A stretch of DNA of 64,000 nt. Source: Girardia tigrina (Eukaryota). The position numbers and the translations under genes were made by a program. Below the pieces are notes generated by a model that ran no database searches, was not told the DNA's origin, and worked only from the letters and a program-made list of their open reading frames with translations. The stretch is from NCBI GenBank assembly GCA_001938485.1, contig MQRK01243661.1, positions 1 through 64,000 on the forward strand, given 5' to 3'. Position 1 is the stretch's first letter. Each line of letters begins with the position of its first letter. Of this stretch, positions 266-50,500 are shown piece after piece.

Positions 266-1150
266 TTAGTGAAGCAGGCAGTGAGTGACTTGGGCTTTTA
301 TAATATAGATTCTATTAAGTAATAAACGCAAATGTTGAAAACTAAGATTAAACATTATATCTTGAATATTATATTTTTTCAAAGTTGCATCATCAACTTC
401 TTCTGGTTTAATATTCTCATTTTCTTTAGGGATATTAAAATTATACCTTCTTGAAAAGGAAGATAATGTACCTAAATATGAATTAATTTTTTGTTTTTGA
501 TAAACTAATAATTTTGCTTTTTCACTATAATTGAAAACATAATTAATTTTTAAATTCATATCAGAAATTGGTTTAAAAATTGTTAGAGAATCAATTTTTT
601 CATTTAATTTTTTAATTCCATCTTCACTCTTTTCCACATTCCGATTAATAATATTATTAATATATTCCACATTCATATTAATAATATTATTAATTTTTTT
701 CATATTCTCTTCAATATTATCATAAATATTTTTCTTACCCCTTTCAATAATACGATAAATTCTTTTTTTATCATCATTAATATCATTAATATCATTATTA
801 ATCTTTTTCATATTTTCACTCATTTCATTATATTGTTTCACCATTGAATCAATTGTAAGTTTCAAATTTCTAATACTTTTCTCAACATCTATATTCCCAA
901 TCTCGATTTTATCTTTAACTTTCAGCGAATTCACAGGATCGTTACCCCCTTCATTCACAAATATCTTATCTAACTTTTTATTATTCACCTCTATAGTTTC
1001 ATTTATTTTTTCTGCATTCGCATATCTCTGATCCGATTCTGATAATATTATCCGATTATTTGCTTGAATTTTTTCAAGTATTTTCTCTTCTCGCATTCCT
1101 CCAATTTGCATCACCATTCCCAATTTATTCACAGGAATGTAATTATTCAT
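266..1150 (-). CDS. Polinton hypothetical coiled-coil, Asn/Ile-rich protein (294 aa)
   Basis: Long ORF, CCAAAAAATG start, heptad-like central region with repeated ENMKKIN; no recognised catalytic motif. Confidence 0.7.
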   Translation of the reverse strand: MNNYIPVNKLGMVMQIGGMREEKILEKIQANNRIILSESDQRYANAEKINETIEVNNKKLDKIFVNEGGNDPVNSLKVKDKIEIGNIDVEKSIRNLKLTIDSMVKQYNEMSENMKKINNDINDINDDKKRIYRIIERGKKNIYDNIEENMKKINNIINMNVEYINNIINRNVEKSEDGIKKLNEKIDSLTIFKPISDMNLKINYVFNYSEKAKLLVYQKQKINSYLGTLSSFSRRYNFNIPKENENIKPEEVDDATLKKYNIQDIMFNLSFQHLRLLLNRIYIIKAQVTHCLLH

Positions 1151-1260
1151 TTTTTGGAATGATTTTGTTTTTGAAGAAAAAAAATCATTCCTATTTTATA
1201 AAATTACAATAACGTCGGCTGTACCGAGTTTCTATAAAAAGGGCCTCTTCGAGGCCACCT

Positions 1261-1839
1261 TTATAGAAGCGATTCCGGCCATAAACAATCTAATATTTCC
1301 TCAATTATATCATCGAATTTATGCGCCAATTGATTCTTCGAATAATTAGCGCATTTATTCTCTTTATTCCAACATTCACACTGATTCATTTTAAATAAAA
1401 AATATAAACTCAATTGTCCACATAGTCGTGTTCCGAAGGGTTGTACTTGTACAGAATTATATATACATTTTGGAAAATCTACTAAAGGCTCTATTCCATA
1501 TGGATCAAAATAGTAAGATACTGGCTCCTTCGTCCCATTATCTTTCTTTAAAGATACTGATTTCTCAAATTCTTTATCTCCATTAAAATATCCCACCCAA
1601 TGACTCCCCTGCTCATCTGAATCCTGGTAATTTATTATTGATAATTTTTTCTGATTTATTTTCGCATCCACTTCATCCGCCATCAAGACTTGTATTTCAA
1701 TTTTCAATTTTCGTCCCCAATCTTCCAACTGTTTATTCGTCGATGTATCAACACCAAACATTTGCATTATATCTTGTAAGTTGTAAAATTCGATCATTTT
1801 TGAGTAGAATTTGTTTTCGTAGAAAAAAATTCTACTCAT
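1261..1839 (-). CDS. Adenain/Ulp1-fold cysteine maturation protease
   Basis: IINYQDSDEQGSHWV (His), YFDPYG (Asp), QVQPFGTRLCG (Gln, Cys); likelier start is the AAAAATG at 1797. Confidence 0.9.
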   Translation of the reverse strand: MSRIFFYENKFYSKMIEFYNLQDIMQMFGVDTSTNKQLEDWGRKLKIEIQVLMADEVDAKINQKKLSIINYQDSDEQGSHWVGYFNGDKEFEKSVSLKKDNGTKEPVSYYFDPYGIEPLVDFPKCIYNSVQVQPFGTRLCGQLSLYFLFKMNQCECWNKENKCANYSKNQLAHKFDDIIEEILDCLWPESLL

Positions 1840-2028
1840 TAATTGATTTTATTCAAAATCAATTAATAAAACATTCACGAGGCTTCGCTGAGCTATCAAA
1901 GTCATTTTTATGACTTGTTAGAATTTTACACCTTCGGTATCCAAATTCTATCCTTTTTGAGTAGAATTTTTTTCTACTAAAACGAGTAGAATTTTTTTTC
2001 TATGAAAACAAATTCTACTCAATTCTAC

Positions 2029-2892
2029 TCATTTTTCCATTATTTGTCTCAGTCTCAAACATAAATTAATTCGCTCATTTCGGAAATCAATTAATCGTCC
2101 TTTGTTGTCAATAATTCTCATAGTAAAATCATTTATCTGATAAATGTATACTGGATAATAAGTTACAAAAGCGGGACGCTCTAAAATCTTATACCCGATT
2201 CCAACTGAAAAAGCAGGAAACGAATAAATCACATTGGAATTCCGCACACTTTCAATAATACTCTTATTTTCCACTTCATTTTCACTTGAAACGTATCCCC
2301 CATTAGCAATATTACAATCGATATTACAAATATTTATATCAGTTATCTGAAAAGTATATTTCGATTCAAAATTTTCCATTGGTCCTGTTAAGAGAATATT
2401 TTCCACATCAAAGAAATAGTTGAATTTGGATTTTTCGAATCCATGCATTGAGTGTAGAATCGATTGATTAGTGAATTCAATGGAATAATTATCCAGGATC
2501 TTGATTCGGGATTTTGATGTTTTCTCATCTGTCNNNNNNNNNNNNNNNNNNNNNNNNNNNNNNNNNNNNNNNNNNNNNNNNNNNNNNNNNNNNNNNNNNN
2601 NNNNNNNNNNNNNNNNTTTTGTATAAAAATAAGCATCATTGTTTTCTCCCCGAATAAGCGAATTCCTAATTCCCTTGATTTCCTTTGGTAAATCTTTTCC
2701 TTTATGTAGAATAATAAAAGAATTGTTTTCCGAAGTGACATTTGCAACAGTATTATAGGTCGAGAACCAGACCAATCCGATTTCGTATTTGTATCGCGGA
2801 TCCAAATTCAACTGAACAGGCAGCTTAACCTTGATTTCTGATTTCGAAGCCGATATTGTAAACGTCGTAGAAAATCCACTAGTCTCGCTCAT
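2029..2892 (-). CDS. Minor capsid protein (penton, single jelly roll)
   Basis: YEIGLVWFSTYNTVANVT..NNSF, NIDCNIANGGY, IYSF, C-terminal IIDNKGRLIDFRNERINLCLRLR typical of Polinton pentons; spans an N-run. Confidence 0.85.
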   Translation of the reverse strand: MSETSGFSTTFTISASKSEIKVKLPVQLNLDPRYKYEIGLVWFSTYNTVANVTSENNSFIILHKGKDLPKEIKGIRNSLIRGENNDAYFYTKXXXXXXXXXXXXXXXXXXXXXXXXXXXXTDEKTSKSRIKILDNYSIEFTNQSILHSMHGFEKSKFNYFFDVENILLTGPMENFESKYTFQITDINICNIDCNIANGGYVSSENEVENKSIIESVRNSNVIYSFPAFSVGIGYKILERPAFVTYYPVYIYQINDFTMRIIDNKGRLIDFRNERINLCLRLRQIMEK

Positions 2893-4099
2893 TTTTGAGA
2901 AAATTTTTTTTCTATGAAAACTTTTTTCAATAATTCCTCCTGTTTTTCTTTTGATAATAATTTTTTTCGTCTTAATTTCTTCATAATATTCAAAATATTA
3001 TCATCCACACCATCATATGACCAGCCTTCTTTGCAGCGATATATTTATACAAATACGAAAACATTGAAATCGGGTCTGAGGGTATTCCCTGTCCTTTTTG
3101 TGATCGTAACCGTGGTAATGATGATGTTTTTTCATCCGTCTCTTTTTTCAGGAGTCCTACTGGTCCCGCAAATTCTCCTACATTTCCTTCAGCTTTATTT
3201 AAAGCATCAAAACAAAGTTTAGTATAATAAAAACTTCTTTCTCGAGCGTTTATTCCATTATTTAATAGAAATGATAAATACTTATCGAATGATGTATGTT
3301 TTTCTTCCATAGTATATTTCTTTTCGAAAATAATTTCATAATTCCCAATTAGGAAATTATTGAAAATCTCATCAAGCTCTACCCGAACCCGATTATCATT
3401 TCTCACGAAATAATATTTTCCACCCTCATTCACGAGAATATATGTATATTTATTGAATGTCATAAATTGTTTTCCCTCAATATTCTTTCCAAACGTTGGA
3501 CGCAACATCGGAGAAGATCCGAAATTTTCATAATATTTTGTCTCAAAGAATATTTCCAAAAATGGAGCAGGTTGCAATAATTGAGGTTCGAATTTCGTTC
3601 CCAATTTCTGTGCCAACTGTTCCAAGAATTTTTTCGAAACCTCATGATGAGTGGTGATAAATTCCTTATCTTGTGGATATTTTTCAGTCATTTCCTGCAT
3701 TATTGGTGCTAATTCCTGTTGGATGAGTAAATATTCCTGTTGGTATTGATCAAAAAACGATTTGGATTTCACATTATCATAATTCTTAATATCGACCTCA
3801 ATAAAACGTTTCAAATCATTTTCCAATTTAACGACTTTGGTTTTTAGAGCTGAGATTCTGTCTGTGATGGGGCCTTGTAATCCAGTCATTAAAGGTTGAA
3901 ACATTTTCGACATTGACGTTTGAAAATCGGATATACCGCTTTTATATTCCAATTCTTGGCGATTGTATTCATGGATTGCTAGTGAGGATTGAATCAAACT
4001 TTTTCGTAAATAATCAAAATATTTTTGATGTTCATTTAAAGGTTGTGAATCTTTGAATACTCGATTTTCTAATAGTGTTCTCATTTTTAAAGCAAACAT
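2889..4099 (-). pseudogene. Polinton conserved protein with 1-nt frameshift near C-terminus
   Basis: 369-aa ORF ends IPSDPISMFSYLYKYIAAKKAGH; after a shift near 3016 it continues DGVDDNILNIMKKLRRKKLLSKEKQEELLKKVFIEKKFSQK*. This matches the recurrent Polinton PSDP..L..L.A.K.AGN helical motif; the stop overlaps the penton ATG (ATGA). Confidence 0.7.
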
Positions 4100-4770
4100 T
4101 TAAATCTGATTCTGATTATTCGGATCCCAAGGTTCCAAATATAATCCCTTTCCCATGAAATGATATTTCAATTTCCCTCCCAATTTTTTATTTTTATTCA
4201 ATAGAGCCTTTTTCGATTTCGGATCTTTATCCGATTGATTTATTTGTTCACGAAAAAATTTCTGAATTCCTTTACCAACATAATCATCCAAGTATAATCC
4301 TTCTCCGAGATCTGTATCTTTTATTCCCAATTCCGATAATATTCCTTTTCCTTTCGATTTCCGTAATCCCGATCCCGTTGGTGCTGTGGCAGGTGGAACC
4401 GCTGGTGTATTCATTTTATCAAGTTCCTTTTGTTTTATTTGTTTTTCAATATCTATTTTCTCTTTTTCAGCCTGAATCTTCTGTGCTTCACGAGAATTCG
4501 CAACAGTTTTTGATACTCCAGCGGCTACTCCAGCGGCTGCTCCTCCTACTGTGAAAAGAGTAGTTAAACCGGCGATTATAGCGGGGATAAACGGTAAAAT
4601 TCCTCCGCTGTGATAATATCCTCCGATCTCTCCTCCATTTTTTCTAAATCTTTAATCTTTTTCAACATTTCCCGATTCAAATAGAATTCCTTCCCATTCA
4701 CTCGAATCAAACCGGGAGTTTGAGTATCTATCAATTTTCGTATTTTTAACGCATCTGTTTTCGGAGCCAT
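4100..4770 (-). pseudogene. Adenovirus pX-like virion core/membrane-active protein, split by one frameshift
   Basis: ORFs 4576-4770 and 4100-4414 join if one A is added to the A6 run at 4638-4643: NGGEIGGYYHSGGILPFIPAIIAGLTTLFTVGGAAAGVAAGVSKTV...GEGLYL...GKGLYLEPW. Confidence 0.8.
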
Positions 4771-4812
4771 TTTTAGAGCAAATTTTGTTTTCCAAGAAAA
4801 AAAATCGTATCT

Positions 4813-6243
4813 TTATTTCTTATCCACGGTTCCTTTGAATGGTTCGATTATCGTGATTTGGGATCCGCGTAGAGACATTTTTATTTTTGCTTCTTCCAAA
4901 ATTACACAATACATTTTCGTTTGAAACTTTTCAGATTTCCGAATGAGAAGTGTAACGGTAACGTTGTTAACATGCAAAGTTTTATCGATATCACTAGTAT
5001 CAAAACACATTATCGGGTATAAACTTTTCCAATCTTTCAACGATAGCATTGGAGCTTTATCTTGGAAACCGCGGGAACATTGAACATATGAATTATATAA
5101 ATCATAGAAATTCNNNNNNNNNNNNNNNNNNNNNNNNNNNNNNNNNNNNNNNNNNNNNNNNNNNNNNNNNNNNNNNNNNNNNNNNNNNNNNNNNNNNNNN
5201 NNNNNNNNNNNNNNNNNNNNNNNNTAATTTGAATCTTGTAATTTCATTCCCACGAAAATATATCTTGGTAAATAATTTAGATATGCAACATTCCAGGAGA
5301 AAACTTTCTCGGTTTTCAAAGAATACTCTACGGATATGCGTTTGAGGAAATCCACATAAATCGGTTTGTCTTTAACATTTAATCGTTCTACCAATCGAGC
5401 ATAATAATCGATATTCAATTCCAATTGATTCATATGCAGTTCCAGGGAATTTATCGTTAATTTTCCTTTGGTTCCTTTTTCTGAATAAAAAATACTTTTA
5501 TCATCAAGTTTTCGCACCATTGTNNNNNNNNNNNNNNNNNNNNNNNNNNNNNNNNNNNNNNNNNNNNNNNNNNNNNAGAGATGTTTCAGTGAGAAAGCAC
5601 CTCTGAATCTATTTTTCTTAAACTGATCTTTCCGAATTTCAAATCCAATATTTTGGTATCGAAGACCCGCTGGAACTTCTTTGGAATTAGCGGCGCCTCC
5701 GCTCGAACCGGGAGTTTCTTCTTCATCTTCAAGAATTTTTGTACTCGTAGATGCGCTTAAGGTTGCGGATGATGCCGCAGCTATTTTCTCTCCATATGTC
5801 ATTTCATAATGATCTGGAATAAAATCAGTTATTTCTCCGCATGGTAAATAGTTTCTATCTTTAGACACATATAATAACATATCCGAAACAACTCCAGGAT
5901 TATTTATCGATTCAACAACATAGTTACCTAATTTCAAAGACATGCATGAAAATAATTTAGGGAAGAAGTTGGTCTCCAAAACACAGTCACTGTCTTCAAT
6001 TTTAATATCATAAACCAGTTTAGCGTTACAAATATCTATCGGATCAGTGGTTTGCGATAATTGGTAAACCAGAGTTCCGTTCTGATTCATGTATGCAGCC
6101 GATCCAGATGTTGGCGCCAGTTTTATTATATCAGATTTTTTCAAAACGTGAGTAAATTCCTTATTGTTATCGAGATCTAAGATTCCCAAGGGAATCATCC
6201 CTGTGGTTAATTGATTTATTGGTTTTTCAAAGCTTGTTTCCAT
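4813..6243 (-). CDS. Major capsid protein (double jelly roll, hexon-like)
   Basis: 476 aa; NFFPKLFS..SLKLG...VESINNPG, FSWNV....PRYIFVG, YPIMCFDTS motifs of Polinton MCPs; located between the pX-like and integrase genes; two N-runs. Confidence 0.88.
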   Translation of the reverse strand: METSFEKPINQLTTGMIPLGILDLDNNKEFTHVLKKSDIIKLAPTSGSAAYMNQNGTLVYQLSQTTDPIDICNAKLVYDIKIEDSDCVLETNFFPKLFSCMSLKLGNYVVESINNPGVVSDMLLYVSKDRNYLPCGEITDFIPDHYEMTYGEKIAAASSATLSASTSTKILEDEEETPGSSGGAANSKEVPAGLRYQNIGFEIRKDQFKKNRFRGAFSLKHLXXXXXXXXXXXXXXXXXXTMVRKLDDKSIFYSEKGTKGKLTINSLELHMNQLELNIDYYARLVERLNVKDKPIYVDFLKRISVEYSLKTEKVFSWNVAYLNYLPRYIFVGMKLQDSNXXXXXXXXXXXXXXXXXXXXXXXXXXXXXXXXXXXXXXNFYDLYNSYVQCSRGFQDKAPMLSLKDWKSLYPIMCFDTSDIDKTLHVNNVTVTLLIRKSEKFQTKMYCVILEEAKIKMSLRGSQITIIEPFKGTVDKK

Positions 6244-6285
6244 TTTTAAAATATTAAATTATTTTGTACTTAACAGGTTAGTTCT

Positions 6286-7744
6286 TCAAACTCCTTTGTT
6301 AAGTACGGATTTTGTTCCAATTTTCGTAATCTGTAAATCCGCTTCATAGAACCGACCGAATAATGCACCATCTTTGGATACGCGCTTTGCGCTATCAAAT
6401 ATGGTGCCTTTTTCAGTTGTAGGATTTATCAACTTATAAGTCACTGGATATTCATGATCCAAAACTTTTGAAATTACGTAAATTTCCCTGGTCCATTTCG
6501 GTTCATATCCTTTTTTAAAAGTCTGTAATTTCCGTTCCTGGTTTTTATTACGAGTACCTTCAGGTTTGTCTCCGCTAAATAATTTTGTTTCGAATACCCG
6601 AACTCGATCTCCGACTTTGAATTTTGGTTTAACTTTTTTCTTGGGTAATTTTTGAGGTTTTGGAAGCGGAATCGCATTATTAAACATTACATCGTGCGGT
6701 GATACGCGGATAGAACTATGAATTATATTATTATAATCAGATAATATTTTTTGCATTTCCAGCTCAGTGATAACTTTCTCTCCTTTCTCGGTAAATAGTT
6801 TATAGATTTCAGATTTTAATGTTCTATTAAATCTTTCAATAAAAACAGGTTTTTCCTTTACGAAATACATTTTAATATTATTGGCTTTTAGGAATTTTTT
6901 CTCGAATTCTTTGTTTGTAAACTCAGCTCCTTGATCAACCCATAAATATTTTGGAATTGGTAATTCGGTATTTCCTAATTCCGTTTAGATTGAAATGAAA
7001 GCTTGGATTATTGATTCAGATTTTTTATTGGGAAGAAAACGGAAAAAACCATACCGGGAATAAATATCTATAACTTTTAAGATATAATATTTCCAAATTT
7101 TTCTGGTTTGTCCTGATTTTGTTATTGTTGTCGCAACGACTCCATTTTCAGTATCTTCTTTAGCGTCAACAGTTATCAAGTCTGCAGACCAAATCCGATT
7201 CAATGATTTAACATTTATGCGGAGAAAGTCTTTATTTCTTTTATGTTCTTTATGTAATTCTTTAGCTAATTGTTTATTATTTTTATCATCAATGGTACCG
7301 CCAAATGCAATTTTACCTTTCATAATTGTTTTTATAAGAAATCTTTCGAATTTTTGTCGCAAAGACAGATCTTGAAGTTGATTAATATCGTGAATAAGAT
7401 TTACATCAGCCAAGTGTCGATCTCGTAAATCTTCAGATCTGTAAGCGATATCATGTTTATAACAGGCTTGATCTAATCCGTCTACTGGTTTATTATCTTC
7501 GCCGATTGGTTGATCTTGGTCGTCTAATCGGATATCCAATCTTGTTAGTGGACCGCAATAATTTTTTCCTGGCAAATGCAGTTCACCGTATTTCGTTTTC
7601 ATAAATCCAGGAATATATTTTGCAAAATTTCCCATAGATTGTTGAACCTTTGGATACGCGCTTCGCGCTATCAAAGACGCCTCCACCTCCGATTGCTCTT
7701 CGAGAATCGAAGTCTCCTCCACCTTCTTTTTTAATAATCATCAT
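6286..7744 (-). pseudogene. Parvovirus VP1u-like PLA2 fused to retroviral-type (rve) DDE integrase; one premature stop
   Basis: HLPGKNYCGP and DQACYKHDIAY (PLA2); IWSADL (D), LWVDQGAEF (D), IERFNRTLK (E), KFKVGDRVR..FKKGYEPKWT. ORFs 6985-7722 and 6286-6870 are in the same frame, separated only by TAA at 6985-6987. Confidence 0.92.
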
Positions 7745-7870
7745 TTTTGGAAGTAATTTATTTTTTAAAAATCAAATGTACTTCTTAATAAAAATTTCCA
7801 ATACTATCAAGCTATTTCTGTAGACATGATATTAAAGGAAGACGGTTAGTAAAGAATAATAATATTTTTT

Positions 7871-8815
7871 TTACTCGCTTTCATCAATTTCAAGATCTGA
7901 GTGCATGTTCGGATTTTCGATTGTTATTTCTTCTTCAGTAAATATATTTTTATAAATTTTTTTCTCAGTGCGATCAAAATAAATATAATTATATTTTTTA
8001 CGCTTCCAGTGATGAATGATTTCCCGCTGATATTCATTAATATTTTCGCTATTGGGTAAGAGATTAGAGAAGATATAAGATTTATCTCTTTTTCCTAATT
8101 CGAAAAAAATGAATCCAGTGGAATTATTCCGGATAGAATGTTTATCCAATCCGTAGAAAGTTTGGGAAATGTATATCGTATTACAGTTATTATGACGTCC
8201 TCTGGTGAAATACGATTTCATTATTTTCTGATCTGACAGATTCACCACGTCATCGAAAATAATGAGATTTTTTACATCTTTCGGTAATGAGTCGCAAGCG
8301 ACGATTTGATTAGGATCCGAAGAAAATAGGACGGATATTGACTTTTCAGGATCTCTAATTAAATATTTTGATTTATCAATATTATTTTTATTATTAATAA
8401 ATCTTTTATACGCATAAACGAGATATTCCGGAGGAGGAATATAATCTTTATCAGAATTATTTCCTAATTCCTCTTTTATCATGGATAATAACATATTTTG
8501 TTTATCAAAGATATCGCGTATTCCGGATTTGGTGAGAGATGATCCGTCTTCAAAACGGAAACCACTTGCAATCACCTTCAATTCCGGTTGATCAATAGTT
8601 GTGGAATAAAATATTAGATTGTTGAAATCTAAAAAATTATCCTCCAATAACATTTTTGCTAGTAAAAAATTTTTACCACATCCCGATTCACCAACGATTA
8701 GTAATCGAAAGTTCTTTGGGAACAATTTATTCTTGAATTTTGACTCATACATTGTTAAAATATTCAGTTTTTCCTTCATTTTTAAGTTGGAAAAGTATTT
8801 TCCAAGCTTAAACAT
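7871..8815 (-). CDS. Genome-packaging ATPase (A32/FtsK-HerA family)
   Basis: Walker A GESGCGKN, Walker B LIIFDD, YFTRGRHNN, YISQ; likelier start is the AAAAATG at 8779. Confidence 0.92.
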   Translation of the reverse strand: MFKLGKYFSNLKMKEKLNILTMYESKFKNKLFPKNFRLLIVGESGCGKNFLLAKMLLEDNFLDFNNLIFYSTTIDQPELKVIASGFRFEDGSSLTKSGIRDIFDKQNMLLSMIKEELGNNSDKDYIPPPEYLVYAYKRFINNKNNIDKSKYLIRDPEKSISVLFSSDPNQIVACDSLPKDVKNLIIFDDVVNLSDQKIMKSYFTRGRHNNCNTIYISQTFYGLDKHSIRNNSTGFIFFELGKRDKSYIFSNLLPNSENINEYQREIIHHWKRKKYNYIYFDRTEKKIYKNIFTEEEITIENPNMHSDLEIDESE

Positions 8816-8907
8816 ACGGAGGCTTCGCCGACCCTTTAGGCATTTTTTAATTTTTTCGAATTTTAGTGAAAAAATTTTGAAAATTTTTCAAATTGTTTTT
8901 AAAGAAA

Positions 8908-9420
8908 ATGAATGAGTCGAAAAAAAATTTGTTAATAAATAAATGTTTAGATTGTGATTTTTTAAAATCGCGATACAATTATGAAAAAGATAGATATATT
9001 ATAGATATATCATTTTATGAAAAAAAGACAGAAGAATATAAATTATTAGCATTTCAATTTCAAACAATGCTAAAAGATAAAAATGAATCATCTGATTTTT
9101 CTAATGAAAAAATATTAAAATTAGAGGAAAAGAATAGGAAATTAGAAAATACTATAAAACTTCTAAAAGAAGAAAATTATAATCTTAATGCGAGATTAAT
9201 GCAAAAAGAAAAAATTGAAGATGAAAATACAATTTTAAAAGATCTTAAAGAACATAATTTAGAAGAAAAAATTTCTTCTTGGGAAATAAATGATGATAAA
9301 TCTTCTTCTATTAATGAAATTACCGAATCTATAACATCTTCAAAAAGAAATGGAAATTATAAAGGAAGAGCAAAAGGACAAACTAATTTAAAAACAAGAC
9401 AAAAAGAAAATAAGATTTAA
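8908..9420 (+). CDS. Polinton accessory coiled-coil protein
   Basis: ORF with AAAGAAAATG start, divergent from ATPase; CLDC and a leucine-heptad segment. Confidence 0.6.
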   Translation: MNESKKNLLINKCLDCDFLKSRYNYEKDRYIIDISFYEKKTEEYKLLAFQFQTMLKDKNESSDFSNEKILKLEEKNRKLENTIKLLKEENYNLNARLMQKEKIEDENTILKDLKEHNLEEKISSWEINDDKSSSINEITESITSSKRNGNYKGRAKGQTNLKTRQKENKI

Positions 9421-9460
9421 TTGGATTTTGGATTTGGATTTGGATTTGGATTTGGATTTG
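9421..9460. repeat. (GGATTT)n hexamer array
   Basis: About 6 copies, intergenic. Confidence 0.9.
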
Positions 9461-9493
9461 AGAATTTATAAATTCTATTATATTTTAAAGAAA

Positions 9494-9789
9494 ATGAATA
9501 AAAATAATTTAAAATATGAAAATCAATACGATATTAATAAAATAGGTATACGAATAACAAAAGAAAAGATTATAAAAGATAATGAAATAAAGATTGGAGT
9601 ATATAAAAATGCTATAATAAATTTTAATTATTTTATTAACAAGAATGAAAAAAATACCCTAACTGGAAATTAATTAAAGATAAAAAGAAAGATAGAGAAA
9701 TGTTAAAAAATAAGATTATTGATCTTGAAAATGAAACCAATGAAATAAGAGAAAAATGTAATGATAATAATATTGATGATTTTATTTAA
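9494..9789 (+). pseudogene. Small Polinton accessory protein, frameshifted in A7 run
   Basis: AAAGAAAATG at 9494; adding one A at 9648-9654 gives continuation YPNWKLIKDKKKDREMLKNKIIDLENETNEIREKCNDNNIDDFI*. Confidence 0.5.
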
Positions 9790-9952
9790 AAAATAATTTT
9801 AATTTCTTATACAAATTGATTTTTTTTATTGAAAAATAAAAAATTATCCATTTGAATATTGAAATTAGTATGTCACTATCGTATAGATAGGGATTTATTA
9901 CAAATGGATAGAGTAAAACTACCGCGTTTTTTCTGGTTCATTTTGAATTGGA

Positions 9953-10438
9953 TTAAACTGGTTTGGATTGAATTTTATCACTGATGGCAATTTCACTACA
10001 AATCTCGTTATCAATTATTAAAGAATGGTAACATTCTCTTAATAATGAGGCATAACGCATATTTTTATTGGTGGAGATTTTTTTATGACTATTTTCCTTT
10101 ATTGATTTTAATTCATCATAAAATTCTCCAGCTTTATTTTCATCATATTTCCCGATTTCGGAAATAGTTTTATCTAACATTACTGCTAAGTCTTCATTTT
10201 CTTGTTTTAATCCTTCGATTTCATCTAAATCATTACATCGTTTCAATAATTGATCCTCAAGCATTAAATTTATTCCGTTTACCATATAATTCAGTTTAAC
10301 ATTATCAACAACGATTTTTTCTCCTTCAACAGCTTTTGTAGTTATATTCAATTGATTAAACTTCTTTAATGCTCTCGAAGAAGCATCTCTAAAATCCTTT
10401 TTCTTTTTCATCTCTTTTTTATAAATTTCAAGATCCAT
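9953..10438 (-). CDS. Polinton accessory helical protein (161 aa)
   Basis: ORF with AAAAATG start; no recognised motif. Confidence 0.6.
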   Translation of the reverse strand: MDLEIYKKEMKKKKDFRDASSRALKKFNQLNITTKAVEGEKIVVDNVKLNYMVNGINLMLEDQLLKRCNDLDEIEGLKQENEDLAVMLDKTISEIGKYDENKAGEFYDELKSIKENSHKKISTNKNMRYASLLRECYHSLIIDNEICSEIAISDKIQSKPV

Positions 10439-10470
10439 TTTTTATTTAATTAAAATAAGATTTAATCTTT

Positions 10471-10965
10471 TCAACTTAAACCAATAGCGAGAAGTTCTTC
10501 TTTAAACTTTTCTACTCTCGATGATTTATTCTGTTTTAAAGTTCTTAAGGATTCGGATTCATATTCGGATTCAACAACATCGAGTTTTCCTTTTCCAATT
10601 TCAACTTCTTTTTTCGATTTCGGTTTTGATTTTGATTTCGGTTTCGATTTCGATTCCGATTCCACTATCTCTTGAATTTTCTTTTTATTTTTCGTTTTAA
10701 GACGATTATCATATCTATTCAAAGATGGAATATTCAATTCTTGTAAAGCTCTTGAAAATTTGTATGGTGTAGAACCAATTTTTTTACAGATATCTTTATG
10801 TTTAAGACCAGTATTCATATTTTTCTCATAATCCTCCATCCATTTATAATATCTTTGATATCTCAGAAAAAATGCATTAGCTCGTACATCTTCTTTAATG
10901 AGATTTAAATCCAAATCCTCAAGTTTTTTTATATTATCATAATCAAGCGAATTTTTTTTACTCAT
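10471..10965 (-). CDS. Putative helix-turn-helix DNA-binding protein with SK/PK-rich basic tail
   Basis: LKHKDICKKIGSTPYKFSRALQELNI has HTH-like spacing; ESESKSKPKSKSKPKSKK encoded by hexamer repeats. Confidence 0.55.
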   Translation of the reverse strand: MSKKNSLDYDNIKKLEDLDLNLIKEDVRANAFFLRYQRYYKWMEDYEKNMNTGLKHKDICKKIGSTPYKFSRALQELNIPSLNRYDNRLKTKNKKKIQEIVESESKSKPKSKSKPKSKKEVEIGKGKLDVVESEYESESLRTLKQNKSSRVEKFKEELLAIGLS

Positions 10966-11687
10966 TTTTTCTTTAAAATAAAATGGTTTGTAAAATTTTT
11001 TATGAAAGTGGGGGAGATTTGTTAGAAATATACATAGATTCTTTTTTTCCTCATAAAAATCATATAAAATATTCTAAATTTTGAAATAAACTAGTGCAAA
11101 ATAGGGTAAAATCGATGAATTTTTCGATTTTAAGAATATTGTATGTAGTATTTTTTTATGCAAAATGTTCATTAACATTTTTTAATTAAAATCCCAAACA
11201 AAAAGTTAGCAAAAATATTCATATTAACCATTAAAAATTAAAATATATACATTTTTTAAAATATATTACTTATTAATTTATCAGTAATTAATGTTGATTT
11301 TTTTAGATATTTCATTTTTATGTGATTATATTTCANNNNNNNNNNNNNNNNNNNNNNNNNNNNNNNNNNNNNNNNNNNNNNNNNNNNNNNNNNNNNNNAT
11401 CAATTTTATTTTTAATAATTAATAAAAAACGGTATGTAAATAGATACATTAAAACTTATAACATAATATCATGCACCTAAGGTATTAGGCGCTATTTATA
11501 ATGAGAGCAACTCTCCAGTAGTTCAATACATTATTTAATGGGCTGCAGACCTGTTATCTTAATGCTATTGCTGCGCGTTGATAATATAATATTCTGGGAG
11601 ATTCTAGATAATCTCAGAATATTAGAAAAATCGACAGTCAGTTGCTCTTGGAACCGGTTCCTAAAAACGGCCGAGATCTCAAAACAA

Positions 11688-12116
11688 CATCCAAATCAAA
11701 TCAAATCAAATCAGATGGAATCAAATCAAATTCAAATCAAATCCAAATCCAAAATCCAAATCCAAAAAGAAAAAAAACAAAAAAAACAAAAAAAAGAAAA
11801 AAACAAAAAAAATCGATTTTTCTGAATTTTTATAGTGTTTTATCGATAAAATATTCGATTACTCATTTTTGTTATAAATAATATAACATTTTTTATATCA
11901 ATCAGCCATACTACGGTATGGCTTTTTGGTATCCATTTTTTTTCTTCGAGTTCTCATTTTTGATATAAATAATATAACATTTTGAATTTTATTAGTGTTT
12001 TATCGATAAAATAGCTATTTTATCGATAAAATATTTGATTTTTATATAACTTCGAAAAAGGTGCGAAAAACGTTATTTTTGAAGGGTTTAGGGTATACCC
12101 ACGAAACTATATTACT
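11688..12116. repeat. Candidate Polinton terminal (TIR) region: CAAAT/CCAAAT arrays, A-rich tract, direct repeats and palindromes
   Basis: (CAAAT)n ~11692-11765; TATCGATA at 11841, 12001, 12021; perfect 34-bp palindrome 11998-12031; hairpin AGCCATAC-TACG-GTATGGCT at ~11904-11923. Confidence 0.6.
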
Positions 12117-13221: not shown

Positions 13222-16200
13222 GTGGAATTCTATCTTTATCGTTAATTTAATTGTCATGGGATTTTTTCAGGATATCAAATCATTTTTAAAAGCGGTCCAA
13301 AGTGAATCTTTTGATAAGAAAAATGGAGAAATGGCAGTCAAATTTTTACGTGCCAAAAAATTTAATATTGATGCAGCTTTAGATTTGTATCAAAGACATG
13401 AAGTAGTTTCGATTAGTTTTTTTTAATAATTATTTTCAATCATGTCTCTTTATTTATCTATTAAGACAATTCGAACAAAAGAAAATCTTTTCGAAATCAA
13501 TCCATTTGATAAAGATATTCTTAATGAGTTAATGTCCCAAAAGTTTACATTTTTAGTACGATTATTATTGAAATATTTGGTGCAAATTTAGCGTGACGTA
13601 TGCTAACATGATATTAGTTAAAATTAATTAATTATCAAACTGTAATCTGTGAAAGAAACTACCTTAAAGGGTTTCCACTTTTAAATGTGATTTTTTTTCA
13701 TTTTGAAGTGTGAATATTTCCACTTTGAAGTGTGAAAACTTTATAAATAAATTTACTACTGATATATTGAAAATAATTTAATAAATATAGGCTTGTTTCA
13801 CGGGCTGACTGAAACAATTTCATCTTTGTTGATGAAGTTGGCTTCAATATAAGCATGCGCTGCCGATATGGAAGAAGTGAGCGTGGTCATGCAGCAATTC
13901 AGCGCCTTCAAAATATCAGAAGTAGAAATATTTCCGTTTGTTGTGGACTGCTTAAGACCAGTGTGCTGTACTATAAAAGGCAAAATCGTGCTTTCAATAC
14001 TGAAACCTTTCTAGAATTTATTGATGATACCGTAGCTAAACTGGCCGAAATGAATATGAGTAATGTGATGTTTATTATAGACAATGTCGCATTCCATAAG
14101 TTCCACCTTGTTGCAGAAAAAGTAACAGCTTCCGGGCATACCATTCATTTTTTGCCACCCTACTCCCCATTTTTGAATCCTATCGAGAACATGTTTTCTG
14201 AGGTAAACCAGTGTATTAGAGTTGCCCGCCCTCATAATGAAGAGCAGTTATTCACCAGTATCGACTCCTCTTTTAATGCAGTTGTATCAAATAGCTGTGA
14301 AAATTACTATCGGCACATGCTATCTTTTATTCCGAAATGTTTGAACAGAGAAATAATTGATGATGAAAATTATAATTAAATCATTACATGAAAGTGTTTT
14401 TTATTTAACAATTTTTTTACATGTTTTCATATAACTTTTTCATCTTTTTAATTTTCACACTTCAAAATGAAAAAAATCACATTTAAAAGTTGAAACCCTG
14501 TATATTGTATGTTCCAGATTTCTACAACCTTTACTAACTAGTCAGATAATAATAATTTCTAAATTTTATTCATGTTATTTTTCCACTAAGAAAATATATT
14601 TTCAGTATGATTAAACTGGTGAATTTAGTATAAAAATTGACAAATAAATGGCGTTTCCTGAAAAATTTATTATTCAAAAGCATATGCTTATTATTCACTT
14701 TGCCAAACAACTGCAACACTTATTGTTGAAATAATAGTAAGACATTTGTTCTTACAATGGTGACAACAAATCTTAAAATGTAAATATAAATAAGATTTAA
14801 TTGTTCTATAATCGATGATTCATTATAAAATTACTGTAATTCACGAAATCTAGATTTATATATATTGATCATTTGTTATAATGATTCCCGATTTAAAAAT
14901 GGAGATTTACTTCTGTTTTTATGTGACAAAAATATCGAATGTATGAGTCTTCAGATTAAAAAATAAAAAAACATTAAACTTTCTGATAGACGATGCACTA
15001 ATTTTGTACCAAATAAATTATATGTTTACTTATTTAACATTTTAGACCGATATCGATAGTAAATCAGGTGCATCTATTTGTATTTTTACTGCCAGACTTC
15101 ATCATCCTTCGAAAGCTTCACACCAACACGTTCTGAAAGCTCTCATATTTCAATTAGATGCAATCATTTTATTGTATGATTCGTTATTTTTGTAAAATTT
15201 AAATAAATTTCATTGAAGGCCGTCTACTCAAAAAAATGGATTGATATTTATCTATAATATGACCGGCTCACTGTATTCCAATTTTGACATGACTCTTAGT
15301 GTTAAAATTCTCAATTTATTAAAAGTAAGATTAAAGATTAATTAATTGTCAAAATAAAATTATATAACATATCAGTAAAGGTTTTAATAGAAGTTTTCTT
15401 TAATAAATAAATGAACGAAGAAAAGACATAAATGTTACTCATCATATTTTTAAACCTTTAAGTTAATTTAAGGCCTGATTACAGAAATTAAAAACACTAC
15501 CAATGATTATCTTGTTTTAAAATGATAAATTGTCTTTAAATGAACATGGAAAACAGCAAATTTGATGTTTTTAATATTTCCATTGGGGATTATGTACTAT
15601 CACTAAAGATTCTAGTTTCGATCTTTTTGTTAATTTTTTTCTAATGCTAGTTCAAAAATTTATTTCACCTTCATCATATGCAAATACACATAAAAACGAA
15701 GTTTGGAATTATTATTAATTTTATTATTCTACATATTTAACCCTTCGTAATTTGGTGTGACACTTCTGTAACAAACCGTTGTAACTCTTACAGGATCTAT
15801 AACTATTAACATATCACATTTTAAATCACTTTTGCATGTCTGTTACACACCGATCAATACAACATCGGTGATTTATTAGTACCTAAAGGTGGCGTTGGTG
15901 GTAGGATGATGAATTTGACAGTTCTCTCTATTGAGTTGCGAAGTTCTATTGAGTTACGAAGGATTAATAAAAAATTGATATTGATATCATTGAAAATAAA
16001 TACCGTATTTTTTTCTGAAAATTCCTTTATCCGGAAAAGCTAGGTGACAAAGAACTAAGTTTTCTTGTAAATAAACGTCCAGAGCTTATAAACGTAAAAT
16101 GTTACTGAAAGTAATTGTGCAAATATATTCGCGGTATTACATCATTGTACTCTAATCGGACATGAAACTTAGTAAAAAAATTACATTTTCCTAACGTGAA

Positions 16201-21400: not shown

Positions 21401-24400
21401 ATTTTCTAATTCCATCGGTGAAAAATATTTCTGGTTTCGATGTAATTTCACACAATACTTACTTATTTGAATCGCTTACCAGCCAGAGTATGTTGTAGAG
21501 AGCGAAACAAATGAAAATCGGATGGAGCAATGTCTGGAGAAGACGCCGGATGCGGTAAAAATTTTATTTTTCGTCGCTTTCGCAACATGTAGTGTAGCGT
21601 TATCGGGGAGTAGGATGATTTCTTTCATCGAATGTCCATGTTGCGGCCGCAATTCTTTGATTTTTTCACTCAGTTTCAACAAATGTCCACTGTAGCGCTG
21701 TGCCGTGATTGTTTCTCCGGGTTTAAGTAACTCATAGTTGAGGACTCCCTTCATGTCCCACCATATACAGAGCAACAATTTCTTACTATGAAGATTAGGT
21801 TTTGGCGTTGAAGTTGAAGTTTGACCCGCATCTACCCATGATCTTTTACGCTGTGGGTTTTCGTAATACACCCATTTTTGTCCCCGGTGACAATTCTCCA
21901 CAAAAACGATTTACGGCAGTTACGTGAAAGAAGTGCAACGCACAAATTTAGTTTTTGTACAATATTTGCATGTGATAACTGGTGCGGAGACCAATGTCCA
22001 ACTTTCAAAACTTTTCCCATTGCCGTAAGTCTTCGTTGCACCGTTGATTGATCGATTTCGAGGATCTTAGCCATATCTCTTGTCACCAGGGTTAAATCCT
22101 CTTGAAGTAATGCCTCCAATTCAGAATCTTCAGTTTCTTTATGTCTTCCGTTTCTCTGTTTGTCCTCTAGGTCGTACTCACCATTTCTGAACTTCTTGAA
22201 CCACTTCTTGACCATGGCATATGAAACAGTATCAGCTCCATAGGCTTGCATAATTTGATCCAATGTTTCGGTGTTTTTTCCTAAATTAAACATGAAAAGC
22301 ATGCAATGTCGAAGATGAATTTTGTTCATTTTTGAACGTCTTAGAAAATACGAGCATTTATTTTTTAATCAATTAAATCAAAAAGTTATATTTCTTTTAT
22401 AATAAATGGAGGGATAAAAACTTATGCGTCAACCTAATAAAGTTTTGAACATTTATAAACAATTTAAATCTCTTAATGGTAAAAAGGAAAACTTTTCTTT
22501 TTCTTCTATCTTTCTCGATATAAGCTATATTCTAAAAATTTGGACGATCTGAGTCATTTCTTGGAACACTAATTTCGAGATCTCTTTCTCAATATATTGA
22601 TTGTTTTGGAATTTATCTAAATATTTAGTTTATTAACTCAAATGTTAATTCAAAGTAAAATTTTCTTTTAAAATATCTTTCTTAATCTTAATGCTTTTTT
22701 TCAGTTCTTTACACTGATATTAAAACAATGATCATAACCTCTAAAACGCATATTTAACCTTTCACATATGACTATAGAATAATTGAAAAGAAACTTAAAT
22801 TACTTTTATTGAATTACATTAATTACTATAAACCCGGTAAACGAAATCGTAAATAAATATAAAAATAGAATTTAATAATTTATGTAAATTCAAAAATTTT
22901 CTAAGATGTATTCTTCAGAATGTGCATCCTAAATGCGTTAGTATGGAAAGACTTACGTATGTGACTTCTTGTTTTCTTTTCTCACTGATAGTACTTATGA
23001 GCTTCCTTTTAAGTTAGATGGAATGGTTTAACTCAGCTCTTTTTGGTATGATGTTATAGAGTCACGAAAATCTTTTGAAGTAAATCAGGATCAATCTTGT
23101 TAACATGCCATAAATTACTTAGTAACCAAATCCAGGTTACGTTATGCAACAGGATATATTAAATAAGTGAACTTAATATTCAGAAATTGCTAGGTTTTTT
23201 GAGACAACATTCGCTAAATGAAAAGATCCCTTAGAATCCGAAATAACTCATAGAGTATACGAGTATTTGATCTCTCATGTGAAGAAAATCAATTCTTCCT
23301 TCACGCTGAAGTATTCTAAAAATGGTAATCCATTTAATGAGAATATAGAAAAAAATGGATGTAATCTTACAAGAAGTGCTCAGAATAAATGTTAATGAAG
23401 AGCTTTAAGTATAATTTAAAAAGGATATCAGCTCTTTTGTCTCCACAAATATATCTCGTAATTATATAATTTACGGAATATTACTAGAAAGTTTTTTTTG
23501 CATTTCCATACTTATACCTCGATGAAAGATATTTCAACACGGTTTCCAGGTTAAACCTAAATAAATTTAAACATAATATTGAAAATTTATTATCAAAGTA
23601 TCAGATTCATTTCTACCCCTAAAAAGCATTATTTTTTCTTTGTTGATTTCATGTAATATTTATTAAATTTTATTTTCTTTCGTTTTAATTTGAATTTCAT
23701 TAATAAATATATTAAACTTAACAAGTGTTTTTTATATATTTTTTTCACTTTTCACCGTGCTACAGCTGGAAATCAGTTAAACACATATTTGAAGTTGATG
23801 AATTTGCTAAGATAAGTAGGGGTTCTAAGAAAAACTGGAAAACATGGCAAGTGGTCTACAAGACAAAAAGTTTAAGAATCTTTGTTTTAGAGTCTTAAAA
23901 GATATATGTTTCAAAATTTTGTTTAGTCGAAGATGATTAATTTTACGAGGAGAGTATTATAGAGCTTTTTATATGATAGTTGCATATCATAGATAAAAAT
24001 ACTTCAAATTTATCTTTGTAATTTCTTGCCTAATAACAGTAAATTATTTTTTAGCCAACCCAATATTGCATAAAAAGCTGCACAATGTACGGTTTATCCG
24101 TCCTTGGTTTGTAAATTTAATGTGGAGTTCAAAAATTTAGTGACATAAAATTATGCTAGGATCTTATAGGAAACTGATTTTGTAAAATATATATGTGAAT
24201 AATCAATATTCATAAATGTAATAATATGCTCACGGATATAATTCAAGTGAAAATTATATTGAGTAAAAAGTTATTTGTTGAAAGTAATTTTTATATATAT
24301 CGACCAATCATCTTGCTATTAAATAAATAGTTATTTATGAATTAAAAACGATTTAATTATTTATATAGTTCTACACATAATTTATTCATTATTCATTTGC

Positions 24401-47500: not shown

Positions 47501-50500
47501 TATCATATTGCATCCACTATTTATCACAAGGGATGATTCAATTCAAAAAGTGATCACATTTATAACGAGAAATCACCCAAACGCTTTTGTTTATTAAGCA
47601 ACTTCGTATTATTCATTTTTGCTTTTATTGTGTGATTATAGTTAAAAACTTCAACTGTCAGATTAACAGTTTCCTATTTCTAAACTTAATTTGATAAAAC
47701 ATATCTCAATTCTTATGGACATATTTTCTAAAATACAAGTTTTCATATCTTCAAGTCCACCAGTGGTTTATCAAATCTTTTTCTTTAATATACAGGGTTG
47801 TTATCTAAGTTTTTTTCCGAAAATAACAAAAACTATCACATAAAATGTCCAATCATTCATCATCATCAGCCAAGTATTCAAAATGGCAGCCATTATTATC
47901 AAAGCAACGTTGCCAACGTCCTGGCAACTTATTGATACCATTCTCGAAGAAGGATTCGGCCTTGGTGTTCAACGACTCCTGAAGTTTCTCCTGAACCTCC
48001 TCAGAAGATGCACAGTTCTGACCTTTCAAAGCTCTTTTCATTGGTGAAAATAGATAGTAGCCTGAAGGAGCCAGATCCGGCGAATAGGGGGGATGTGGCA
48101 GGATGTTTAGATGCATTTCAGCAATCATGGCCTGGATGAGATGTACCATATGTGGACATGCGTTGTCCTGAAGATGGTACAGAATACCGTCCGTGGTTTT
48201 CCGTCGCCGTTTTACCAGGATAGCTGTCTTCAGCTTTTCCAGCAAACTGCAGTTGTATGTTTCCGTCATGGTTTTTCCATTTTCTAACACATCCATCAAG
48301 ATCACACCTTTCGAATCCCAGAAGACGCTAGCCAGATGCTTCCTCGTAGTTAACCTCACTTTGGATTCTGTAGTAGGCTCATCGCCACTTCCACACCAAG
48401 ATTTGTGAGCGTATGAGAATGTATTCTCCCAGAATACCCACATCTCATCCACAGTCACTATAAGTTGCAGGAAATTGTTGCTGCGGTACAAAGCAAGCAG
48501 TTTTTTACACACAGACATTCTCTTTTCCTTAGCAGCTTCTGTTAAAACATGTGGAACCCATACGTTGGCGAGGTAACGTTTGTTCATTTTCATGAGATTC
48601 TGATGCACTGCTTTGTGGCTAATTCCAATTTCTTGGCCAATGAATCTCGTTGTGGCAAATTTGTTTTCCTCTAGAATTCGTTCTATATCTGCAGCCACCT
48701 CATAAGAAGGCCGCCCACTGCGAACTTTTTCATTTACCTCGAAGTTACCGTTCTCGAATTTCTTTACCAAGTTGGAACATGTAAGTGACGTAGTTGTTCC
48801 TTCTCCCAGTGTGTTGTTTATCTCTTCTGCAATGTCTATAACTGATAATTTACGCTTCCAACAATATAAAATAAACTTTCTCACGTCTTCTCTATTGAAA
48901 TTCATAGATTAATTTGAAAGATGGCAAAATATTGTAATATCGTATTACTCTAAATAAACAATTTTTAATTTACTGCATTTTTATTATGTAAACTGAAATA
49001 AATATTAATAAACTTTTGATAGTTAAAATGTGTATTAATCATACAATATGCACACCAAATTTGGATTTCTTAGCGGTCATAGATCTCCAGATACAACGAC
49101 AAATACATCGGAAAAAACTTAGTTGACAACCCTGTATTAATTAAAATATTGTTGATGTTACAAAAATTACTAGGTTACGAATTATTGTTTCAAAGTTTGG
49201 GTATTCTGTTGTACGAAAAGGTGTTTATTCACATTACAAATGGTAGACATTATAGCTCATTAATAACTATTTGAATTGGACAAAGTGAGGCCGTCTCAAA
49301 TCTTAAAGTCCTTTTCTTCTATTTCCATTGCTGATGCATTAGACATAGAAATATGTTTCATGACATTTTGAAAAGGTCTTTAAGTAAATTCAAGTTATCA
49401 ATCAAGAAAGATGAATTATCTTAGAAGCGTTGATTTCCCTATCGCAATGAAGATTCCAATTGTAATAATTTGAAATCTTTCAATAACCATGTTTATAATA
49501 AAATGTAAAACCAGTCATAGAAAACATGTACATTTATGTAAACTACTAATGATTAAAAAATATATTAGTATTTAGTTTACAAATAAAAAGTTAAAAGATC
49601 AACAAAAATCGTCAAAGATATTGTTTACTATATGATAATGACACCAAATTGTTTTTTTATCGATTACTTTTCATAATTTAAAATAATCACAATTAGTGTG
49701 TGCGTGTTTTTGAAAAGACCAATTAAATGAATATGTACACAAATACACTCACCAATACACACAAGCACGCACACACATTAACCTATTATTCACTGCGTTG
49801 AAATTTTCTACTTTGATGATTTTCATTGTTTATTAACGTTTATCATTGTTATTAATGATTTTATTGAAAATCTCGTCCGAAATTATCGTTATATCGTTTG
49901 GGTTTTTTTCTGGATAAATTTACTCAGATTTTTGATTATGAAAATATCGTTTTCGAGAAACTTGTTTGAAATATTATTTTGTCTATAAGTAGCGGAATTG
50001 TCACTGACATTTGTTATCACAATCTCAGTCGCATGCACGTGCCACTGAACATCGATACTGTTGTTACATTTTTTTTATTTATTGAAAAGTAATTGAAAAA
50101 TATTCAATATATCTATGAACACAATCACTTATAATCAGGTATTTTATGATTTTATTTGATATTATGTTTTTAAATAAGACTTGTCATTACAATTATTATT
50201 TTAACAATTTATTTTAGTTATTGAGTTTTTTGTAAAATAATATTGTCGACAGTCATTTTGATACGTTTTAAGACGGGTGGCGACGCGATCTGCCAATCGA
50301 AATCTTGATGCTTTTTGCAGACGGTACAGTTCGATACACACATACACACACCTGTTGATTGTGTAATAAAAGAAAAGGATGTATTATTCACACTTCTTCT
50401 TTTATCTTAAATACTAAGGTGTAATTGATCGTACTTCTATCAAAGAGATCTTTATAATCATCTGGTAGCGAGAATGTTGTCTCTCATTATTGATCAATTT

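Follow-up and report, generated by a model that had tools for sequence, protein, structure and literature searches.

A lineage-restricted hairpin family at start codons of a Polinton-like element in Girardia tigrina, possibly a DNA cassette that moves between genes

The stretch analysed here (the window) is 64,000 nucleotides of Girardia tigrina DNA (assembly GCA_001938485.1, contig MQRK01243661.1, positions 1 to 64,000 of the forward strand), and from about 309 to 11,300 it contains a partial endogenous Polinton/adintovirus-like element. Several genes of this element are preceded, within a few nucleotides of the start codon, by copies of a short AT-rich hairpin, which an earlier note on this DNA had read as a conserved structure. 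We find that the feature is real and lineage-restricted; as a conserved structure it falls short of the earlier description, and its greater interest lies in its apparent mobility. Eight genes of the element are co-oriented on the minus strand, from 8779 to 1150, and the Polinton/Maverick gene set (rve integrase, A32-type ATPase, protease, and major and minor capsid together) is present. The principal genes are:

Start at 1150, minus strand: gene
1261 to 1797, minus strand: adenain-like cysteine protease gene, with close homologs P0085 to P0088
2029 to 2892, minus strand: minor capsid (penton)-type gene, with homologs in the loci L009, L010, L012 and L014
2990 to 4084, minus strand: gene with no assigned function
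Start at 4770, minus strand: broken gene, in pieces
4813 to 6243, minus strand: double jelly-roll major capsid gene (PF21738, below cut-off), whose start has no family hairpin
6286 to 7744, minus strand: gene for a PLA2-like domain plus rve integrase, broken into several frames
7871 to 8779, minus strand: A32-type packaging ATPase gene (PF04665)
Start at 8908, plus strand: gene

The hairpin copies, together with the perfect stem that adjoins one of them, are:

1156 to 1191, minus strand: 36-nt member of the hairpin family, forward, separated by 5 nt from the ATG at 1150
1802 to 1837, minus strand: 36-nt member of the hairpin family, forward, separated by 4 nt from the protease ATG at 1797
1838 to 1867, unstranded: perfect 13-bp stem with a 4-nt loop, start-proximal in copies of the element without 1802 to 1837
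1959 to 2030, plus strand: flipped, interrupted family copy that encloses a complete flipped 37-nt copy (1984 to 2020) and adjoins a start-like duplicate
2895 to 2930, plus strand: flipped family copy with a decayed outer arm, before the ATG at 2892
4775 to 4812, minus strand: forward family copy with a decayed outer arm, occupying the entire spacer from the major capsid stop to the ATG at 4770
7750 to 7784, plus strand: weak look-alike in flipped orientation, separated by 5 nt from the ATG at 7744
About 8890 to 8913, plus strand: core-only family copy, without outer arms, overlapping the plus-strand ATG at 8908

Five copies (1156, 1802, 1984, 2895 and 4775) have a core in common, consisting of seven or eight T, a C, a three-base loop, GAAAA and a bulged C, and amounting to 24 bases when the copies are anchored on the bulged C. 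The copies are 35–38 nt long; the inner stem is kept, the loop is variable, and the outer stems differ at every independent site. When each copy was left out of the model in turn, these five scored 16.4–27.7, values reached at none of 103,774 host positions, where the best scores were 10.8–13.7. The copy at 7750 scored 4.2, which 33 host positions equal or exceed, and its membership of the family is unsupported by its sequence. The shared motif claimed in the earlier note is therefore beyond chance for five copies and falls away for 7750. The coordinates and sequences given there for the copies are as stated, as is the presence of the 13-bp stem. Two copies had been missed, i.e. the broken one at 1959–2030 that surrounds 1984–2020 and the core-only one near 8890–8913, which is the best match outside the training set (score 18.1). 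Sequence scans found no family copies in coding DNA or in the approximately 52 kb of host DNA in the window, and exact motif patterns gave no matches in IMG/VR and none in GTDB.

We compared the predicted RNA folding of each copy with that of shuffled sequences. The z scores were −3.75 for 1156, −6.81 for 1802 (with the 13-bp stem included) and −5.87 for 1984, as against +0.19 for 2895, +0.45 for 4775 and −0.22 for 7750. Strong hairpins are thus found only at 1156, 1802 and 1984; 2895 and 4775 are decayed, and 7750 is at background, such that the term hairpin, which the earlier note had applied to all of them, suits the first three and not the others. The note had also seen covariation in the outer arms. 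Between 1156 and 1802 this stands, as all 11 outer pairs form in both copies and five of the 11 are changed on both sides. Elsewhere it does not: 4775 has four broken pairs among its first 12 outer pairs, and 1802 and 1984 are a local duplicate, for which reason true covariation comes down to the single independent pair 1156 and 1802. RNAalifold returned no consensus pair for the six copies, from a MAFFT alignment that uses sequence only and is not structure-aware; the covariance model ended up without base pairs, and its scores reflect sequence only. An Rfam scan of 300–12000 gave two matches up to an E value of 1, both far under the gathering score and neither on a family copy. An origin of the outer arms as copies of the local flank was considered and is unsupported for 1156, 1802, 2895 and 4775.

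At the starts at 1150, 1797, 2892, 4770 and 7744 the gap between hairpin and ATG is 5, 4, 2, 4 and 5 nt, respectively, in agreement with the claim that copies lie within about 5 nt of a start codon, while the gap from the upstream stop to the hairpin at the same five starts is 69, 191, 59, 0 and 86 nt. With five copies placed randomly, each within its own spacer, the chance of such ATG spacing is approximately 2e-6, or approximately 6e-5 if 7750 is left out. Because the spacing tracks the next ATG and not the upstream stop, 3'-end processing is disfavoured. A supported core is present at five of the 11 starts examined (1150, 1797, 2892, 4770 and 8908), and 7744 has a weak look-alike; at the ATPase start the hairpin is a different one, without the family core, and no hairpin was found at 6243 (major capsid), 4084, 10438 or 10965. 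To speak of virion genes in general, as the note did, was consequently too wide. The copies at 1156, 1802 and 4775 are forward, and those at 2895, 1984, 1959 and 8890 are flipped. The start at 8908 is divergent and has no same-strand gene directly upstream, yet it bears the core. Flipping leaves the DNA duplex of a copy the same but changes the loop and bulge of its RNA, and shared recognition would therefore be simpler at the level of DNA.

Sister copies of the element were compared over 260–2530 in public contigs belonging to four runs, out of 24 that were listed. Run X1 has a large number of family members, 3770 of its contigs being aligned. All of the joints that lack a hairpin come from this run and are among the 15 of 49 joints that were listed, with single-copy depth not fixed; X3 and X8 have no cover at 1172–1247 and so have no bearing on absence of the 1156 hairpin. 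Two X1 contigs skip 1802–1837 exactly (joint 1801 to 1838) at a depth of 728, the mean depth in the bin 1856–1931 being 2763. The hairpin at 1156–1191 is missing from three X1 variants with distinct junction letters, at depths of 141, 138 and 100 compared with 5139 at 1176; joints in this region run from 1154 to 1267 and from 1154 to 1228. Two of these three variants are also without a GC-richer 57-nt hairpin at the protease stop and the third lacks 1156–1191 only, while in a fourth X1 joint 57 nt are missing from roughly this position near the protease stop. The earlier note had named absence of the motif at orthologous positions as the observation that would count against it, and this was found in part, in X1 contigs without the hairpin at the 1150 and 1797 starts.

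In the short X1 variants the protease terminates at a Leu-stop pair, which the window still has at 1204–1209, a little past the 57-nt piece. Because the window retains this pair, the 57-nt piece was probably gained, and a single gain of the family hairpin would therefore be simpler than two losses. In the protease homolog P0087 (88% identical) the translated upstream extension does not appear able to encode the 3' arm of 1802. The 13-bp stem that lies next to 1802 has 14 of 16 bases equal to the 1156 core, a likeness attained by 1.2% of 1500 AT-rich host 30-mers, and it is probably an older family copy whose asymmetry has been erased.

The family is not the only source of hairpins in the element. 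The region 310–9000 holds 10 strong hairpins, compared with none in each of six block shuffles and three, one and one in three host stretches of equal length. Hairpins outside the family include:

1210 to 1268, minus strand: GC-richer double hairpin of about 57 nt with a C-GAA-G loop, at the protease stop (fold z −4.4; joints 1154/1155 to 1267 and 1216 to 1274), optional among copies
1315 to 1362, minus strand: in-frame 36-nt hairpin insert in the protease gene, alike in its layout of triloop and bulged C, different in sequence
1912 to 1951, minus strand: C-GAA-G hairpin whose outer arms come from a duplicate of the protease start region
6358 to 6414, minus strand: long bulged hairpin with long arms in the 3' part of the integrase gene, with a sub-threshold Rfam match to a microRNA precursor
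8783 to 8810, minus strand: bulged triloop hairpin of another kind, immediately upstream of the ATPase ATG (z −4.9)

The 231-nt protease spacer contains about five piled hairpins, including the nested copy and the duplicated start region. A second family consists of GC minihairpins with a C-GAA-G loop, at about 1876, 7657 and 8820 and also at 1245, 1930 and 6385. This loop is unusually stable in single-stranded DNA. The sequence GCGAAGC occurs three times on the coding strand of the element and not on the other strand, and once in 51.9 kb of host DNA. A GC minihairpin at 8811–8840, related to 1868–1890, precedes the hairpin at the ATPase start, and a 30-nt GC core (28 of 30 bases identical) is common to 6358–6414 and about 7648–7680, near both ends of the integrase gene. 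Coding inserts, as defined by protein alignments, are 12–102 nt long and all multiples of three. The 36-nt protease hairpin is absent from five of five homologs and from six X1 variants, each a net 36 nt shorter; conversely, X1 copies carry an extra 39-letter hairpin-forming insert at 1647–1654 that is not in the window and matches extra residues of P0085. Hairpin inserts other than the family thus far described measure 33–57 nt and are variably present in this lineage, some of them in frame. The idea that in-frame lineage-specific inserts are hairpins as a class was rejected, as the p value of 0.009 for 10 inserts rose to 0.15 without the strongest.

More distant relatives were collected by alignment-based searches, which gave 8, 27 and 11 loci (46 in total) at 23–41% identity; the ATPase alone gave no loci in IMG/VR. 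The hairpin family has no counterpart in the 46 loci, the best model match being 15.7 bits and a regular expression matching once, and at this level of identity the loci say only that the feature is lineage-restricted. Strong hairpins number 49 per 371,397 bases in these loci as a whole. A general dyad at Polinton starts was rejected, a start-proximal hairpin being found at five of 260 starts in 37 loci (nine near-duplicates dropped). Among starts preceded by AA in loci of up to 34.5% GC, with 11 near-duplicates dropped, none of 56 had a z score below −3 (mean 0.06), compared with three of 11 below −4 in the window; starts in the distant loci are AT-rich and not structured.

A soil lineage (L009, L012 and L014; 32–34% protease identity) has polymorphic GC-richer triloop-minihairpin inserts in and around the protease gene. 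The z score is below −3 in three of the 12 listed, and one of these three is a tandem repeat; an insert in L012 has the layout sequence, inverted copy, direct copy. The same loci (L009:1450–1993, L012:200–830 and L014:205–870) have hairpins of different sequence directly after the minor capsid stop. In L045, and also in L020, L027 and L028, many starts share TTTAAAAA about 30 nt upstream together with a TATA-like run before AAATG, a two-part AT motif that looks, from its sequence, like a conventional promoter of that lineage. Full-text literature searches returned no title or abstract opening that describes such hairpins in animal Polintons, a result on which subscription papers, Repbase reports and supplements could bear, and by term search the word 'promoter' is absent from one paper each on adintoviruses and entomopoxvirus satellites (PMC8502044 and PMC11296320).

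A Pfam scan of 15 proteins gave PF04665 and PF08398 above cut-off and PF00665 and PF21738 below it; the protease and minor capsid have no Pfam match behind their names, which we assigned from family motifs together with homologs. Other hallmarks of Polintons are a gene for protein-primed polymerase B, terminal inverted repeats and a 6-bp target duplication. No polymerase open reading frame was found in the window, in which the element is interrupted near 309 by another repeat, and the present copy is decayed, with the integrase gene and the 4770 gene fragmented. The frames 8908–9420, 9953–10438, 10471–10965 and 2990–4084 have no convincing Pfam match, and for the 4084 protein a search of 5.8 billion sequences gave 1297 candidates, none of them a homolog. 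The major capsid contains a low-complexity insert of more than 30 residues (5710–5811), also present in its close homolog P0100, and its N-terminus (6184–6243) exceeds that of most homologs in length. The 1150 gene includes a perfect 20-bp AT-only inverted repeat (644–694) within tandem 33-nt repeats, and is broken into by a short repeat at 262–309, whose end presumably resembles a Helentron-type terminus. Contig depth over this repeat is far above that of the Polinton (1.6 million in the X1 bin 260–335 versus 1e4–1e5), and many contigs depart from the window sequence at 307–309. At 11807–12040, close to what is probably the right end of this or an adjacent element, there are short repeats, both direct and perfect inverted. 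Beyond the element are host transposon remnants (13855–14379, 21476–22329, 47853–48905, 54818–55285 and 62842–63597), which we take to be frames of Tc1/mariner, LTR integrase and LINE reverse-transcriptase type. With its mariner-like and LINE-like frames and an exon that we assume resembles CRAL-TRIO tyrosine phosphatase, the flanking DNA fits an animal host.

We tentatively favour the reading that the 36-nt hairpin is a derived, lineage-restricted and optional DNA cassette that has spread by copying from one gene start to another in this Polinton family, and give it a little less than an even chance. It takes in the shared asymmetric core, the two orientations, the nested and tandem copies, the fixed ATG spacing and the presence or absence in sister copies, all of which are observed, and it supposes a direction of gain, copying over long range, template switching and perhaps a function at DNA level. 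During the strand-displacement replication of the element, a nascent strand ending at the A-run and ATG of one gene would re-anneal at those of another, copy the hairpin behind that ATG and then return, which would fix the position without a dedicated enzyme. The core, with its T-tract and A-tract, would seed local template switches by which the site-specific outer arms are made to pair, and the same local switches could flip the core, erase the bulge, and duplicate or delete the unit. Template switching is reported to yield stems, multiple compensatory changes and loop inversions without selection (PMC8794818). The apparent covariation would, under the cassette reading, then be largely mutational. 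Any function of the cassette would most likely reside in double-stranded DNA at the downstream start, and be promoter-like or nucleosome-excluding.

Several observations weigh against the cassette. The copying step itself is unobserved, its stages being read from sequence, and no target-site duplication was seen at junctions that lie in T-runs, where a short one is unreadable. The joints lacking a hairpin at gene starts are confined to one of the four runs and to short contigs, among the 15 of 49 joints listed, and the depth of 5139 with the 1156 region far exceeds that of the variants without it. Hairpin slippage can give a precise deletion (PMC13334657), and such deletions may have arisen in decaying host copies or in the library. 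In copies without 1802 the start still has the related 13-bp stem beside it, as would be expected if this slot had to be filled. No special likeness to their own flanks was seen in the arms of 1156, 1802, 2895 or 4775, and six of the 10 in-frame inserts are unremarkable as hairpins.

The alternative that has most to be taken seriously, although we consider it unlikely, is a form of the late promoter or operator suggested in the earlier note, here taken as ancestral and required: a dyad read either way by a factor of the element, the host or a helper virus, with arms kept paired by selection and hairpin-less copies being deletions in dead elements. The tie to the downstream start is what survives of that suggestion: the 2–5 nt spacing, so improbable by chance with or without 7750, the core found out of sample at the divergent start 8908 and the five of 11 outer pairs changed on both sides between 1156 and 1802 are all expected from it. 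Conservation is what does not, as the core is missing in X1 sister copies, at the major capsid, 4084 and ATPase starts and in the distant loci, with neither a structured AA-ATG start nor a model match above 15.7 bits. TCTA, the late motif of mavirus and CroV (PMC8547959), is in the cores of 1802, 1984 and 2895, but not in those of 1156 or 4775. The core resembles the vaccinia resolution site/late promoter, with an 11-base identity at 1802, but the general resolution-site pattern is at chance level in the window (36 occurrences versus 29.9 ± 6.4; four of six copies match). The mimivirus late motif (PMC11464507) is in none of the six copies at one mismatch, its nearest match being at 1949–1973. 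The late-promoter reading loses because the resolution-site pattern is at chance, the mimivirus motif misses all six copies and the capsid start is without a core. Quite doubtful, in our estimate, is a combination of promoter and cassette, in which the core would be a poxvirus-late-type promoter, hairpin-forming and orientation-free, that spreads from start to start inside an animal Polinton.

An RNA processing hairpin of the mimivirus type had also been proposed and seems improbable; under this reading a long transcript would be cut at gene boundaries, which would create the 3' end of one mRNA and might also set the 5' end of the mRNA that follows. The eight co-oriented genes would suit it, as would the stems at 1156, 1802, 1984 and 1838 with their 13–16 pairs and loops of 3–6 nt; an enzyme of RNase III type that reads structure would tolerate flips, mimivirus R343 cleaves within such hairpins (PMC4402537), and Sputnik has the signal at the end of 16 genes (PMC6723459). 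However, the position is tied to the next ATG, with the upstream-stop gap ranging over 0–191 nt, three of the six copies fold no better than shuffles, and hairpins or cores are present at 8779 and 8908, starts that are not directly preceded by a long gene on the same strand. The protease gene contains, in frame, a hairpin of equal strength, at which cutting would destroy the mRNA, and the 15 proteins scanned from this element, which is incomplete in the window, include no RNase III or poly(A) polymerase. We give similarly little credence to neutral scars left after integration by host replication or repair, without a role in replication of the element. The decay of this copy and the great number of family members in X1 would allow for scars, and small inverted triplications do arise in cellular replication (PMC13334657); against this, coding inserts keep the frame and one is common to the homolog P0085, host DNA of the window has few strong hairpins, and host repair would not bring one core to five gene starts. 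Least credible is that the hairpin is a genuine miniature transposon, mobilised by a transposase or an HUH nuclease targeting the A-run before start codons: near-constant length (35–38 nt), precise presence or absence and nested insertion are as it would predict, but the termini differ at each independent site without a visible target-site duplication, and there is no copy in 52 kb of host DNA and none by exact patterns in IMG/VR or GTDB.

The cassette bears on gene transcription in animal Polintons and on their possible need for a helper virus. As it is anchored at starts and present or absent by copy, it provides natural pairs, with and without, in one genome for effects at 5' ends. If it is selfish, hairpin invasion of the organelle type would be known from a nuclear element of virus-like kind as well, and arms that diverge but still pair would not have to reflect selection on structure in such elements. 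If the poxvirus-late-type reading were true, the element would be rewiring its genes, start by start, for transcription by a co-infecting large DNA virus, and the hairpin would be a promoter cassette that propagates itself, pointing to an animal Polinton that depends on another virus in the way virophages do.

The mimivirus rule sets thresholds of at least 13 pairs for the stem and at most 5 nt for the loop; 1802, 1984 and 1838 satisfy them and 1156 about does, whereas 2895, 4775 and 7750 do not. Like the mimivirus and Sputnik signals (PMC4402537 and PMC6723459), the stems here are AT-rich and intergenic, with at least 13 pairs and short loops. They differ in having a spacing fixed to the next start, a shared sequence core, optional copies and no processing enzymes found, and the signal does not belong to the 3' end of the upstream gene. 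Promoters that virophages share with their helpers (TCTA of mavirus and CroV, PMC8547959; the PgVV early motif, 10.1101/2022.07.28.501842) and the vaccinia site (PMC8956199) are likewise repeated AT-rich motifs at a fixed distance before starts, and the T-tract followed by CTA of the vaccinia resolution site/late promoter (PMC8956199) recurs in the core. In those sources the motifs are not described as orientation-free hairpins, and the mavirus motif is at all genes (PMC8547959), whereas the Polinton core skips the major capsid gene and so is not before most or all late genes. Template switching (PMC8794818) and inverted triplications (PMC13334657), the latter with the layout seen in the L012 insert, can account for paired divergent arms, loop inversion, bulge loss and precise deletion. 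Local template switching alone cannot place one core at five or six starts, for which copying over longer range or selection is needed.

Rickettsia palindromic elements are about 100–150 nt long, far longer than the hairpins described here. They are palindromic inserts borne inside protein-coding genes (PMC6649704), as also occur in this element, but the family at the starts is non-coding and the in-frame hairpins have other sequences. The closest likeness is to the hairpin elements of organelles, i.e. the RHEs of sponges (PMC2800124), the GC clusters of yeast, such as GC42 (PMC4478555), and the fungal double-hairpin elements named in both. Unlike these, the Polinton family has a nuclear host element, site-specific stems and start-codon anchoring, and no target-site duplication of the GC42 type was seen at its T-run junctions, where a short one is unreadable; in the Allomyces elements such a duplication is absent (PMC2800124). 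Several related hairpins per replicon and presence or absence at orthologous sites (in run X1 only) are found in both, whereas conserved stems with variable loops are not, as the outer stems here differ at each independent site. Because this feature fails and anchoring at start codons is added, we do not file the Polinton hairpin as an organelle-type element. Both are short, repeated hairpins that carry no genes and occur patchily, with copies in tandem or merged, loops that vary and an occasional insert in frame; in sponges there are AT-rich types as well.

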